DNA of 63,884 bases, filler included, from Reclinomonas americana ATCC 50394 (lineage: Eukaryota): NCBI GenBank assembly GCA_048213135.1. It is 7 parts of 3 records of this genome, joined end to end, with 100 filler letters (N's around TTAATTAATTAA, not from the genome) between each part and the next. Parts side by side here need not be neighbours in the genome. Positions count along the whole stretch, not along the records: positions 1 to 18,482 come from PS015180.1; positions 18,583 to 40,661 come from PS015181.1; positions 40,762 to 45,423 come from PS015181.1; positions 45,524 to 52,421 come from PS015181.1; positions 52,522 to 53,988 come from PS015181.1; positions 54,089 to 61,976 come from PS015181.1; 1 more part is not named here. One strand, written 5' to 3'. Below the pieces are notes generated by a model. That model made no database searches. It saw only the letters and a list, made by a program, of their open reading frames with translations, and was not told the DNA's origin. The number at the start of each line of letters is the position of its first letter. Position 1 is the stretch's first letter. Below are positions 1,296 through 57,692 of the stretch, piece after piece. The position numbers and the translations under genes are program-made.

Positions 1296-4200
1296 GAGGC
1301 CGACTGCTCCTTCACCACCTTCAAACGACTGTGGCGTGAGCACCACATGGGCATCCTCATGCCCTACGTGAGCTCCCTCGACAACGTGGACGACCGGCAA
1401 TTCGTGTTCGAGCTGTTCAACACATGTACCGCCTTTCTGAGCATCAGTGCCGACCTGCGCGTCAAAGTCGGCGCTCTGTACGCCCTCTATGCGTTCTTTG
1501 TCGGGCAGCAGTCGGTGCCGCCGCTGCGCATTCCCGTGTCGGTGGAGCTGAGTCAGGAGCTGCAGCGATTGGGACGGGTGCTCATGCAGCGACGCATGCT
1601 GGACGCGCTGCGCGTGTGGCGTGCACTGTGTGATCCGCGATCCAAGGTATTCGTGAGGGAGCTGGAGCGGCGCGGTGAGCGATTCGTGCAGGCGGAACCG
1701 CAGCGCATGCCACCGCATCCGCTCGTGCAAGTGTGTTTGGAGAAGGGCCGGGAGTTGCCGGAGCCGGCGGCCGAGCAGCTGCTGAACGAGGCGCAACTGG
1801 AGCAGTGGCGACGTATGAAGGAGAAGCGGAACGCGGGGCAGGCGGTGGCGGCGGCGGCTGCTGCAGCGGCGGCGGCAGCAGTCGAGGCTCCTCCTCCTCC
1901 TCCACCACCACCACCGCCATTGCCTCCATCCAGCACCATTTCACCGGAATACGAGGCCGCGGTTCGCGTACGCACGTTTGGTGGATTGGAGGTACGCGTG
2001 TAGCTTATCTCACGAAGTGGGAATGGATGCGGCCTTTCCCCCGTGATCTCTTCTCTCTCCTCTGTTCCTTCTTCTTCTTCGCTCTCTCAGACTCTTCTCT
2101 GTTCTCGCCGACAGGAGACACCACGAGTCCCCCTCGGCGCGACGACTCCCGTGTTCGAGCAGCCGTCCGAGTCGGTAGTCGATGCACTGCTTGCCGCGCG
2201 CACCGTGGTCAGCGAACGGAATCCACTGGTGCCCATTGGCTGCTTGCTTGGCGACGGTGCACGACTGCGAGGTTCGGAGGCGTTGTGCGGTGGCGACCTG
2301 TTCGATCCGCGTCAGGTGCTGAATGCGTCGGAGGCGTACGAGTTGGCCAAGAGGCACTTGGCGGCGCAGCGTTGCGTCATCGTCAGCGTGAATGAGTGTG
2401 CAATTAGTGCTTGAACTGAAATCTCCTTGCTCGCACAGCGGCAGAGACGGTGGGCCAGCGGGCCGCGGCTGACCTGGGTGACACTGGCACGGTGTTTTCC
2501 AAGGCGATTTCGGATGTGCTGCAAGCCGAGGGCAAGGTGTGTCACGTTGCTGCGCTTGTGTTTGAGAGTGCGCTCAACGCTGCTGCAGGAGTTTCGTCGT
2601 TCACGCTTGGAGTACAGCCACACCGAGAACAAGTCGACACTGTGTCGACTGCGAGCGGGTGCATTCTTCCGACTGCTGAAGAAGAACACGGTACGACCTG
2701 CTTTTCATGGCTCTCTCTCTCTCTCTCTCTTNNNNNNNNNNNNNNNNNNNNNNNNNNNNNNNNNNNNNNNNNNNNNNNNNNNNNNNNNNNNNNNNNNNNN
2801 NNNNNNNNNNNNNNNNNNNNNNNNNNNNNNNNNNNNNNNNNNNNNNNNNNNNNNNNNNNNNNNNNNNNNNNNNNNNNNNNNNNNNNNNNNNNNNNNNNNN
2901 NNNNNNNNNNNNNNNNNNNNNNNNNNNNNNNNNNNNNNNNNNNNNNNNNNNNNNNNNNNNNNNNNNNNNNNNNNNNNNNNNNNNNNNNNNNNNNNNNNNN
3001 NNNNNNNNNNNNNNNNNNNNNNNNNNNNNNNNNNNNNNNNNNNNNNNNNNNNNNNNNNNNNNNNNNNNNNNNNNNNNNNNNNNNNNNNNNNNNNNNNNNN
3101 NNNNNNNNNNNNNNNNNNNNNNNNNNNNNNNNNNNNNNNNNNNNNNNNNNNNNNNNNNNNNNNNNNNNNNNNNNNNNNNNNNNNNNNNNNNNNNNNNNNN
3201 NNNNNNNNNNNNNNNNNNNNNNNNNNNNNNNNNNNNNNNNNNNNNNNNNNNNNNNNNNNNNNNNNNNNNNNNNNNNNNNNNNNNNNNNNNNNNNNNNNNN
3301 NNNNNNNNNNNNNNNNNNNNNNNNNNNNNNNNNNNNNNNNNNNNNNNNNNNNNNNNNNNNNNNNNNNNNNNNNNNNNNNNNNNNNNNNNNNNNNNNNNNN
3401 NNNNNNNNNNNNNNNNNNNNNNNNNNNNNNNNGCTCCCCCTCTGCTCCCCTCTCGCTCTCCCCTCTCGCTCTCCCCCGCTCGCTCTCTTCTCTTCCCTCT
3501 CTCTCCCCCCCTGCCTCCTTCCCTCTCTCCTTCGCTGACCATGTCTGTTTCCCTTTCCCACAGCGCTCCAGTGCTCGCCCCCGAGGCAGCAGCAGCGCCC
3601 TATCACGCGCGCCTCGCCCTCCACGAAAACGCAACGGCTCAGCCTCGTCACTCTCTGCGTTTCCATCGACACGCAGCATGTCCGACTTTGCGGACGAGGA
3701 GGAAGAAGGAGAGGAGGAGAACGTGGACGAGCGTCTTCGCCGGCAGGCGCGTGAGCGAGTGTACGACTTTGATTACACGTTCGAGGACGAGGACGAGGAC
3801 GATAGCGTCGGTGGCGACGAGGACGACGACACGGCACAGCAGCCGCCGCGCAACAGTTCCGGCGTTATCTCGTCCGTGTCTTCCACTCCCTGCTGACCTG
3901 TGGTCTCTTGCAGAGCAAGTGGAGATGGAGTACCAGCAGTGGTTCGAGCAGCAACGCGCCAAGGGCATGCTCGGCTCAGACGACGAGGAGGATGCCGAAG
4001 AAGACGACGAGGAAGACGCAGCAGCCACGAAGAAGAAGAAGAAGCAGAAGCGACCGACGTCGACCAGAGACCTCTTCGACTCGGACTCAGAAGGATCAGG
4101 CTTCGCCGTCTTCTCCGAGACAACAACAGCCGCTGCCTCGCCGCCTCGCAAGCGTCGCAAGACAACTCCACCATCAACGAAGAAGACGAAGAAGAAGCCG

Positions 4201-4338
4201 ACAAAGGCGAAGACGAAGACGACAAGTAAGAAGAAGGAGAAGCCGATGGCCAGTGGCAGTCCACCAAAGACGCGATCGGGCAACAAGACGCGACCAGTGT
4301 CACCTCCGAGCAGTGATGAGTCACTGTCATCTGATTGA
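1296..4338 (+). CDS. SNAPC1: snRNA-activating protein complex subunit 1 (SNAP43)-like; spliced, 5' part and middle exons lost in N gaps
   Basis: Exon 1296-1991 reads FTTFKRLWREHHM...RVKVGALYALYAFFVGQ...PLRIPVS, matching the SNAP43 N-terminal domain as I recall it (F..F..LW; RVGALY.LY..Y..Q). Further in-frame GT-AG exons lead to an acidic/Lys-rich tail ending at TGA 4338. Linkage of the tail across the 2732-3432 gap is assumed. Confidence 0.75.
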
Positions 4339-4364
4339 TAAAGAAAGAGATTGAGAGAGAAAGC

Positions 4365-55460: not shown

Positions 55461-55804
55461 ACGGAGCGTTACTTTGCTTGTGTGTGTGTGTGTGTCGAGG
55501 GGGGTGTGTTTTCACTGGGGATTGAGGTCATGTGGAGTAAGGGTGGGATCGTGGTCGAGGGACTCTGCACATTGCTGTTGCGGGTACACAGTTATGGGCG
55601 CAGTGCACGAGGTTGTGGATACGGAGGTGACCGTTTGTCGGCGAGTCGGTGATTATTATGTGGCTGGACTGACTGAAGCCGCCTGGCGTAGAATGTGATG
55701 CTGTGTATGGTGATGTACATTGCAAGGGGAGAATGGGGACGGCGGACGGCAAAGGTGTGTACATGGCTGGCTGTTTCACTGCACACAGCATTCTCACTTC
55801 TCTC

Positions 55805-57692
55805 TTATTCTCTCTCCGGCAGAATCGGCGCCACCACGGTACGCACAAACTGCACCAGGTCATCTCGGGCAATTGTCTGTGTTGCACAGTGTGAGAAAGG
55901 GGCTGGTGATCGATAGATGGAGCACAGCAACGCAACTCGAGTCTCCCTCTCCTCCACGAGCACCGACGCACGAGAGTCGAACCGCACAAAGTCTGGCGTG
56001 CCGCGGTCCTTCTCGATGCCGTACTTCAAGCAGCGCGCCATATCAGGGAGGTCGATGGTGCCGCTCTTGGGCGTCACGACCAGCACGAGGACGCGGTCTT
56101 GCTCCACGTCGACTGCGCACGGAGATCGTGATGAGCGACTGTTCAGCAAACCCCCTCCTTTCCCTTTGCCGCTCACCTCCAACAGACAAGGCCGAGTCGC
56201 GAATCTCCACTGGCGTCACGCGAGTTTCGGCGCGATGGCAGTACACGACGCACTGGTGGCGTTTCAGTTCGGCGGCCGTGCATCGCTCCGTGGGTGTGAA
56301 CACGAAGCGGCGACCCTGCACGAGGCCGCCGGCCATTTGCAGAGACTGCGCAAGGATGCGTTGGAGTGGTCGCTGGGCCTCGCAGGCGACGACAAGGATG
56401 TTGGTGATACTCTCGAGGTCGTCGGCGTTGCCTTGTTGCAATTGCGAGGGGAGCTCGCGGTCGTCGGGGCGCATCGGACGCGGTGATACCGGTGGCTGAG
56501 GGGCGACGACGATGTCGGTGGCCACTGGCGCTGCTGCTGTGGCGATTGGTGGCACCGGGCTGCTGCCAGAGGACGAGGCGCCACTGGTCTCTTGAGTGCC
56601 GTTGGCATCGAGTTTGACTGAGGTGAGGGCGTCGTCAATTGCCTGCTGCATCGCGGATACGTCGCGCCGCGCCTGCGTGATGAAATCCGCGACGGTCTTC
56701 TTGGCGGCATCGCGTTGCGTGGTGGCGGCCGTCAGCTGCTCGGCAAGGCGATTGAATTCTACGATTGCGGTGGCAAGCTGGTCGCTGAGAGCGGCGAATT
56801 TGCGGTTGGCCGCAGCGAGTTGTTGTTGGAGGTTCTTGCAGTCGGTTGTCGAGGCCGCCAGATCGATGTTGAGCTGATCGCGCTCCGAGGTAAGGGCGTG
56901 GATCGTGTCCCTGGCATCTGCAAACTCCTGGCAGAGACGCTCATACTGCGCCACCGAGGCAACCAGTTGAATCTTGAGTTGATCTCGCTCGGTATTGAGT
57001 CTTCCGTTGGTGTTGTTTGCGTCCGCGAGTTGCTGTCGGAGATAGTCACGCTCCGCCCTGAGTTGATCGCATTCTGATCTGAGGGCGCTGATCGTGTCCC
57101 TGGCTTGGGCAAGTTCCTGGTAGAGACGGTCGCTTGTCTCAGAGCGTGTCACCGGCCCCCGTGACTCCGTGTCGTAGAGCCGGGCGAGGGCTTCGTGTAG
57201 TTGTCTTGTAACTCGCTCAAGCTCGTCGTTGGTATTGCGGTGCGCTGTCATCTCGTCGCCCAACATGCGCTTGGTGTTTTTGTGCGCAGCCATCTCACCG
57301 TCCAACTGGCGCTTGGTGCTGTTGTGGCTTTCGACTTCTGCGTCGAACATCCTCTCCGCAGCCAGCCTGGCCGCACGCTCAGCTTCCAGCTCGCCATTCA
57401 GTGCAATGCGATGCTCAGTGGCCGCAGTGAAGGCCAGTTGTAGTTGAGTGATCTGCTTGTTGGCCTCGTCTCGCTCCGCCGTGAGCTTCTCAACTTGATA
57501 GGTTGCCTCTTCTGTGTCTGCCTGCAAATGTCGGACTCGCTCGTTGGCCGCATCACGCTCCGCCAGCAGTTGTTGTGTGTGATAATTCGACACTCGCAAC
57601 TCCTCTTGCAGCCTCTCGCATTCGTCAAACCGTTCTTGCACAGCCGCTTTCAACGATTCACGCTGAGTCCTCCGGTCAGTGTCGTGATCCAT
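55805..57692 (-). CDS. Long coiled-coil protein with a C-terminal globular domain of unknown family
   Basis: 549-codon ORF with heptads and an internal repeat (ARDTISALRSECDQL / ARDTIHALTSERDQL). Introns 56176-56113 and probably 55936-55877 extend it to TAA 55805. The true start is unclear. Confidence 0.7.

Follow-up and report, generated by a model that had tools for sequence, protein, structure and literature searches.

Two kinds of 5′ splice site (donor) occur side by side in 63,884 nucleotides (nt) of DNA from Reclinomonas americana ATCC 50394 (GenBank assembly GCA_048213135.1), and the question that this locus raises is how both are read. The window, by which we mean this whole stretch, is nuclear DNA of an intron-dense eukaryote with genes on both strands; those recognised include SNAPC1, PTH2, an MFS transporter, a FERM protein, LRR proteins, 6-phosphogluconolactonase, a PfkB kinase, eIF5B and a Snf7-family protein, and the two donor classes extend over the span 2371..55936. 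We find that the two classes are associated with the last base of the exon, and that introns of the second class are real and share the 3′ signals of the first. Our preferred reading, to which we attach moderate confidence, is that donors of the second class are read by U1 small nuclear RNA (snRNA) in a register displaced one base downstream.

All results rest on the 64 kb window and on protein homology. Introns were called with a self-trained Viterbi gene finder, which combines a three-periodic coding model seeded from Pfam-supported frames (third codon positions G 43%, C 28%, T 16% and A 12%), a YAG acceptor matrix and a length prior. Donors were either required only to have GT or scored with a two-component matrix confined to intron positions +3 to +8. 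Since exon bases at donors were never scored, the base at −1 is free of model bias. Classes were likewise set by intron bases alone: class A has G at +5, and class B has GTT, G at +6 and no G at +5. With introns of up to 1000 nt allowed, the final set contains 97 introns, namely 57 of class A, 30 of class B and 10 others. Class B thus accounts for about 31% of the introns called (30/97), which agrees with the 41 shifted donors among about 121 that an initial annotation of this DNA had counted. Nineteen of the 97 introns are longer than 140 nt, and the 3′ ends of many are uncertain. One donor classed as other, 13787, is probably really 13778, another GTTGCG. Two versions of the finder were discarded: one, first trained from long open reading frames (ORFs), produced junk introns, and the other, whose acceptor matrix lacked the YAG rule, drifted to repeats rich in GA.

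The finder reproduces the exon structure of the eIF5B gene obtained by tblastn with eIF5B homologs (high-scoring segment pairs, HSPs, at 42272–42445, 43416–43631, 44054–44140, 44206–44286 and 44972–45424). The named eIF5B representatives nearest to this one belong to fungi, a red alga and Naegleria, groups with no close relationship to one another. Long introns (401–940 nt) rich in GA/GT low-complexity sequence lie beside introns of about 60 nt, and in eIF5B this is borne out by the homolog alignment. A local intron scan did not discriminate, with decoy signals reaching 40–60% of the real counts, and a whole-window count of the bases preceding the motifs, made without gene models, was swamped by non-donor copies. 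Pfam scans of ORFs covered the first 36 kb of the window and returned no matches for 150 ORFs from 18–36 kb; on single ORFs or exons Pfam was informative for few genes, and a single eIF5B exon used as query in a homologous-protein search found no match.

Donor class is associated with the last exon base. In the final set, G stands at −1 in 46 of the 57 class A donors, in 1 of the 30 class B donors and in 4 of the 10 others (Fisher p = 5.6e-13 for A versus B). Read from the exon side, an exonic G is followed by 46 class A, 4 other and 1 class B donors, and a non-G exon end by 29 class B, 11 class A and 6 others. When no donor model was used (71 short introns), −1G was found in 25/32 class A, 1/13 class B and 5 of the 26 other donors (Fisher p = 1.8e-5). 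The intron-only donor model, applied to 78 short introns of which 10 are other, gives 34/45 for class A versus 0/23 for class B (p = 7e-10), and the introns that shift the frame or contain an in-frame stop (n = 56) give 28/38 versus 0/18 (p = 1.2e-7). Split by length, the final set shows 36/45 versus 0/23 for short introns and 10/12 versus 1/7 for long ones. An unlabelled two-component mixture fitted to the 71 donor-model-free donors separates into CAG/GTGCGT (40 members, 29 with −1G) and T/GTTGCGT (31 members, 2 with −1G), where the slash marks the cut.

These independent calls bear out the proposal of the initial annotation that the last exon base predicts donor class, and at all ten coordinates that it had named the motif lies on the strand it gave. 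Of its two shifted donors after an exonic G, the one at 7890 (−), g/GTTCAG, stands and is the single exception in our final set; the other, at 18976 (−), is ambiguous with an in-frame donor at 18973. Its six ordinary donors after a non-G base are all among the 11 found here, and each is a full match of the GTRNGT type on the intron side, GTGCGC in one case; the remaining five (4406, 10155, 18973, 31641 and 62206) are doubtful, lying in microsatellite or GA-rich sequence.

Shifted donors might be artefacts, that is, miscalled boundaries or false introns within exons, with the −1 base mirroring the exon background. Two class B calls did prove wrong (43618 was corrected by homology and 5452 by a PDB alignment), of the 23 short introns in class B 5 keep the frame and contain no stop, and the −1 composition of class B is near the background preceding GTT. 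Nevertheless, we regard this explanation as very improbable. The remaining 18 of the 23 cannot be read through, and the lengths of all 23 modulo 3 (5/9/9) show no bias to multiples of three. Among 35 sense-strand GTTGCG copies within predicted genes, 21 serve as donors. The class also emerges without a donor model and in the unsupervised mixture. GT-AG introns of the window, most of them some 60 nt in length, have a branch site resembling CTCAC and end in CAG, and class B introns carry the same signals as class A: CTNAY lies within 45 nt of the 3′ end in 23/30 class B and 46/57 class A introns, with the branch about 17–18 nt from the end; CAG terminates 28/30 and 52/57, respectively; and the median length of short introns is 64 nt in class B and 62 nt in class A.

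Four class B introns, at 46735, 38430, 11298 and 5479, are furthermore backed by homology or profile matches. In the PfkB kinase gene, reading through 38430–38489 opens a 20-residue gap relative to homolog P0004 exactly there, and removing the segment raises the score for 9 of 10 PfkB homologs; for P0005, whose match lies downstream, the score is 0.4 bits lower. In the FERM-domain gene, where the gene models missed the intron, the FERM_M profile stops at nt 11295 (profile positions 3–55) and restarts at nt 11362 in a different frame (52–105). The alignment of the PTH2 gene to PDB entry 1q7s_A passes through 5452 up to ORF residue 47–50, and the next GTTGCGT is at 5479. The third PTH2 exon, downstream of the 5479 intron, gave no match against the PDB, and the PTH2 piece gave none in a homologous-protein search. 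Within this gene, three copies of GTTGCG lie less than 70 nt apart, at 5410, 5452 and 5479 (+). The copies at 5410 and 5452 are coding by homology and have G at +7, and only that at 5479, with T at +7, is a donor; the contrast hints that the T at +7, which is present in 21/30 class B donors, belongs to the signal.

The Snf7-family intron at 46735 also bears on the position of the cut. There the Pfam Snf7 profile runs from 72 to 119 (plus three residues) in the upstream exon, through one split codon, and from 124 to 146 in the next exon, and is continuous to the residue across the intron. If class B introns were instead of the GC-AG type, the cut would lie three nucleotides further on, at GTT/GCGT, with the exon ending in GTT. 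The reading frame alone is compatible with such a move, and GC-AG is the commonest non-GT donor type, with 0.9% of human sites (PMC4856993). However, the Snf7 profile has room for one split-codon position, not two, and TT/GC would pair very poorly with U1. GTT is moreover invariant in all three phases (10, 8 and 12 donors in phases 0, 1 and 2), which marks it as a signal and not a codon. A GC-AG cut is therefore exceedingly improbable.

The two classes differ on the exon side by a displacement of one base. The class A consensus is SAG/GTRNGT (S, C or G; R, G or A), and that of class B is (C)W/GTTGCGT (W, A or T), where G stands at +6 and not at +5 and exons do not preferentially end in G. At −1, class B has 13 A, 11 T, 5 C and 1 G (n = 30). 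This composition is like that of class A at −2 (chi-square p = 0.39) and differs from class A at −1 (p = 3e-10); likewise, class B at −2 is like class A at −3 (p = 0.66) and differs from class A at −2 (p = 0.003). A occupies −2 in 29/57 class A donors and in 5/30 class B donors (p = 0.002). The exon-side consensus of class B is thus CA/ where that of class A is CAG/, which is the displacement that characterises shifted-register sites. The single motif G[G/T]TNNG, cut at two positions, by which the initial annotation had described both classes, holds to the extent that both fit one seven-base frame, GGTGCGT versus GTTGCGT, but its NN is not free. Its suggestion that coding constraints deny an exonic G to the shifted donors fares poorly: of the 29 class B donors that follow a non-G base, 8 could have G there without changing the amino acid, and the surplus of phase 1 and phase 2 introns in this class gives only p = 0.07. 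As a separate observation, class A donors almost never have G at +4 (2/57), unlike human sites.

The same exon data speak to a register in which G+1 and U+2 pair normally, one U of GUU is bulged and GCGU pairs as +3 to +6 would; the missing −1G would then be no more than the established balance of exonic against intronic base pairing. Human donors read with a bulge at +2/+3 have been described (PMC4856993), and compensation is visible within class A, where −2A occurs in 7/22 donors with a perfect intron consensus versus 22/35 of the others. Since −1 would face the same U1 base in a bulged donor as it does in class A, G should stay favoured there, but the exon pairs that this register would keep are not found. 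G stands at −1 in 1/30 class B donors, below the 16% exon background and far below the 16/22 seen in class A donors with a perfect intron consensus (p = 1e-7 for the latter comparison); −2A is lost as well, and A turns up at −1 in 13/30. Because class A donors with a perfect consensus keep their −1G, neither the bulged register nor simple compensation explains its loss in class B, and we consider the bulge distinctly unlikely.

To compare registers, we counted base pairs with the human U1 5′ end as printed in PMC4856993. Of the class B donors, 29/30 form more pairs when shifted by one base and the remaining one forms equally many, whereas 56/57 class A donors form more pairs in the canonical register. 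In the shifted register that we favour, the first intron G would pair where −1G normally pairs, U+2 would be a single internal mismatch with U1, U+3 would replace U+2, and GCGU at +4 to +7 would replace +3 to +6. Cleavage would stay 5′ of GU, because, as we propose, later steps and not U1 fix the cut site. We infer U1 as the reader, its register and the exact cut site from these patterns. An Rfam scan of the window returned no family above threshold, and hence no U1 or other snRNA there.

Several observations weigh against a plain shift of the textbook U1. One is the intron motif: GC occupies +4/+5 in 21/30 class B donors (GTTGCG), whereas the corresponding NN of class A is varied (GA 15, GC 13, also GT, AC and others; n = 57). 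As canonical U1 pairs better with GA or AA than with GC, a shift alone does not predict the GTTGCG consensus; the proposal of the initial annotation that U1 reads these sites one base off therefore fits the displaced exon composition and the human-U1 pairing, but leaves GC at +4/+5 unpredicted. The mean number of pairs is 5.8 for shifted class B donors versus 7.0 for canonical class A donors, and after a non-G base class B nonetheless outnumbers class A (29 versus 11), so that pairing strength alone is insufficient. The human 5′ end used for these counts may not be that of the host. The cut before G is assumed from the GT-AG rule and the frames: in every class B call the intron begins with GT and the frame is kept. 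The gene models, built ab initio over 64 kb, yielded at least two false class B calls (those at 5452 and 43618). Finally, G is already scarce before GTT (15% in the window, 16% in predicted exons), so that class B donors fall only modestly below background in −1G (1/30, binomial p = 0.036), and among the 66 GTTGCG copies in the window −1G precedes 0/20 of the best intron candidates versus 8/46 of the others, a weak contrast. The strong signal is therefore the absence from class B of the marked excess of −1G seen in class A, and not a strong avoidance of G.

The preference for GC, together with the greater number of class B donors after non-G despite fewer pairs, points to a component that departs from the textbook one, be it the 5′ end of U1, a variant of U1 or a different factor. 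Taken to its full extent, this would be a dedicated reader able to match GUUGCGU completely, whether a U1 with a non-standard 5′ end, an additional U1 variant or a different factor; bases opposite U+2 and opposite +4/+5 might be changed, for example, and two codes would be read by two RNAs. The tightness of the class B motif, with GTTGCG and T at +7 each in 21 of the 30 donors, is consistent with such a reader, and variant U1 snRNAs exist in human (PMC3561869). On the other hand, one U1 in a shifted register already accounts for the exon-side shift, and the 3′ signals are common to both classes. We therefore hold a dedicated reader to be doubtful. It is with the same reserve that we mention a broader possibility, in which CAG/GTRNGT and CA/GTTGCGT are two donor codes, the second is read one base off the cut by a dedicated or 5′-changed U1, and the uncoupling of recognition and cleavage is routine genome-wide.

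Two other origins were rejected. U12-type (minor) introns are marked by an extended RTATCCTT-like donor with a branch site to match. Class B introns begin with GTTGCGT and have CTNAY about 18 nt from the end and CAG at the 3′ end, like class A. Introner-like (repeat-derived) introns were sought by all-against-all blastn of the 97 introns, which gave no match between short introns at E ≤ 1e-3; the 10 matches overall all involve low-complexity tracts of long introns.

A shifted register of the kind that we favour is established in human cells by Roca and Krainer (2009), as cited in PMC4856993 and PMC9311317. Class B resembles those human sites in its predicted pairing one base downstream with +1G in place of −1G, in exons that end in (C)A and not (C)AG (compare the test oligonucleotide ACA/GUCAAGUAUA) and in having G at +6; GU would likewise be kept at the cut. 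It differs in scale, with about 31% of the introns called here against about 1.5% of 201,541 human sites for all validated non-canonical registers together (Tan et al. 2016, PMC4856993). Its sequence, too, departs from what a shifted register would lead one to expect: in GUUGCGU, U is strict at +3 and positions +4/+5 are GC, where canonical U1 would call for AAGU. Shifted-register sites are further defined by suppressor U1 experiments, whereas class B is known from sequence. The human bulge +2/+3 register, attributed to Roca et al. (2012) and with 68 predicted sites in Table 3 of PMC4856993, resembles class B in donors that start with GUU and in downstream matches moved by one base, but it keeps the exon pairs that class B has given up, with −1G in 1/30, −2A in 5/30 and A moved to −1.

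At ordinary donors, exon and intron bases are interdependent here too: the six non-G donors of the initial annotation have a full GTRNGT-type match, and −2A is rarer where the intron consensus is perfect. Burge and Karlin in 1997 and Carmel et al. in 2004 reportedly described such a dependence between −1G and positions +3 to +6. Compensation of this kind keeps the register, however, and involves neither a second motif with G at +6 nor a loss of −1G (present in 16/22). We found no description of a GTTGCG donor motif or of a lineage rich in shifted donors in the literature searched, although a genome paper or supplements may hold one. The kind of mechanism proposed is already known, and what would be new is its unusually high share (about 31%) with a distinct, tight consensus.

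The coordinates of individual donors and introns are collected in Table 1.

Table 1. Donors and introns of the window. Positions count along the whole stretch; the donor column gives the last exon base, a slash for the cut and the first intron bases. Basis: CC, check of a coordinate named in the initial annotation; DF, donor-model-free set; GS, GTTGCG scoring; FS, final set.
Positions	Strand	Feature	Donor	Length (nt)	Gene	Basis and remarks
46735..46795	+	class B intron	a/GTTGCGTG	61	Snf7-family	phase 1
38430..38489	+	class B intron	c/GTTGCGTC	60	PfkB kinase	in frame, stop-free
11298..11366	+	class B intron	a/GTTGCGCC	69	FERM-domain	phase 2; missed by gene models; high intron score
5479..5548	+	class B intron	t/GTTGCGTA	70	PTH2	replaces false model call at 5452
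2371..2438	+	class B intron	c/GTTGCGTC (GTTGCG)	68		CC, FS; highest-scoring GTTGCG
3856..3913	+	class B intron	a/GTTCCGGC	58		DF, FS
6474..6541	-	class B intron	t/GTTGCGTC	68	MFS transporter	GS, FS
7161..7229	-	class B intron	c/GTTGCGCC	69		GS, FS
7660..7890	-	class B donor	g/GTTCAGTC	231		CC, FS; sole −1G exception of set
8564..8670	-	class B intron	t/GTTGAGTG	107		FS
8822..9086	-	class B intron	a/GTTTCGCG	265		FS
9130..9200	-	class B intron	t/GTTGCGTA	71		DF, FS
10968..11032	+	class B intron	t/GTTTCGGA	65		DF, FS
12552..12613	+	class B intron	t/GTTGCGCA	62		DF, FS
13066..13129	+	class B intron	a/GTTGCGTG	64		FS
13223..13284	+	class B intron	t/GTTGCGTC	62		FS
14372..14833	+	class B donor	a/GTTGCGCC	462		FS; 3′ end uncertain
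25112..25491	+	class B donor	t/GTTGAGGG	380		FS; weak call
27152..27211	+	class B intron	a/GTTGTGTT	60		FS
30430..30492	+	class B intron	c/GTTGCGTT	63		DF, GS, FS
30660..31302	+	class B donor	a/GTTGCGGC			DF, FS; long intron, 3′ end uncertain
32072..32138	+	class B intron	a/GTTGCGTG	67		DF, GS, FS
32240..33124	+	class B donor	a/GTTGCGTG			FS; long intron, 3′ end uncertain
33496..33563	-	class B intron	t/GTTGCGTC	68		GS, FS
34172..34235	-	class B intron	a/GTTTCGTC	64	QPQYAA repeat-rich	DF, FS
35860..35917	-	class B intron	t/GTTGCGTT	58	C2-domain	FS
35954..36017	-	class B intron	a/GTTGAGCG	64		DF, FS
36059..36126	-	class B intron	c/GTTGCGTT	68		DF, FS
36944..37842	+	class B donor	t/GTTGCGTG			FS; long intron, 3′ end uncertain
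37903..37963	+	class B intron	a/GTTGCGTC	61		FS
55877..55936	-	class B intron	a/GTTGCGTT (GTTGCG)	60		CC, FS
13939..14000	+	class A donor after non-G	a/GTGCGC			CC, FS
27351..27412	+	class A donor after non-G	t/GTGCGT			CC, FS
27880..27938	+	class A donor after non-G	c/GTACGT			CC, FS
30223..30289	+	class A donor after non-G	c/GTGAGT			CC, FS
33814..33872	-	class A donor after non-G	c/GTGAGT			CC, FS
52595..52661	-	class A donor after non-G	c/GTAAGT			CC, FS
18900..18976	-	ambiguous donor	g/GTTGTG or t/GTGTGT			at 18976 (initial annotation) or 18973 (preferred by gene model), 3 nt apart, same frame
42458..43397	+	class A intron	g/GTATGG	940	eIF5B	bracketed by HSPs ending at 42445 and starting at 43416; gene model concurs
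43632..44032	+	class A intron	g/GTGAGA	401	eIF5B	tblastn and gene model
44144..44202	+	class A intron	g/GTTTGT	59	eIF5B	tblastn and gene model
44282..44972	+	class A intron	g/GTGAGT	691	eIF5B	tblastn and gene model

Some donors have G at neither +5 nor +6, namely 26696 (+) GTATTC, 26996 (+) GTTTTT, 34150 (−) GTTCAT and 41365 (+) GTGCAT; all four are preceded by ...AG, as if carried by exon pairing alone. The QPQYAA-type repeat gene at 33622–35042 (−) consists of many very short exons (21–57 nt). Its donors after ...CAG are of class A or have no G at +5/+6, and one after ...GCA (34235) is of class B. Long genes with a single or few exons stand among the intron-dense ones, at 58067–59740 (−), 48352–49737 (−) and 55808–57692 (−); they include a 558-residue ORF and a coiled-coil-like protein of 607 residues. 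The window contains 22 runs of N, 12 of which make up six 100-base linkers (18483–18582, 40662–40761, 45424–45523, 52422–52521, 53989–54088 and 61977–62076). The linkers are identical, with 44 N, the 12-base spacer TTAATTAATTAA, which has stops in all six frames, and another 44 N. The record thus consists of artificially joined contigs, and genes that span a join are cut, as is eIF5B at 45424.

If the shifted reading of class B is true, a spliceosome would be able to work on a large scale although the sites of recognition and cleavage lie one base apart, and the genome would offer natural test cases, in the hundreds to thousands, of how the position of the cut is set once U1 has left. In this lineage, gene finders trained on one donor matrix would annotate a third of the introns wrongly. 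The preference for GC, in turn, raises a testable question about the 5′ end of the organism's own U1.

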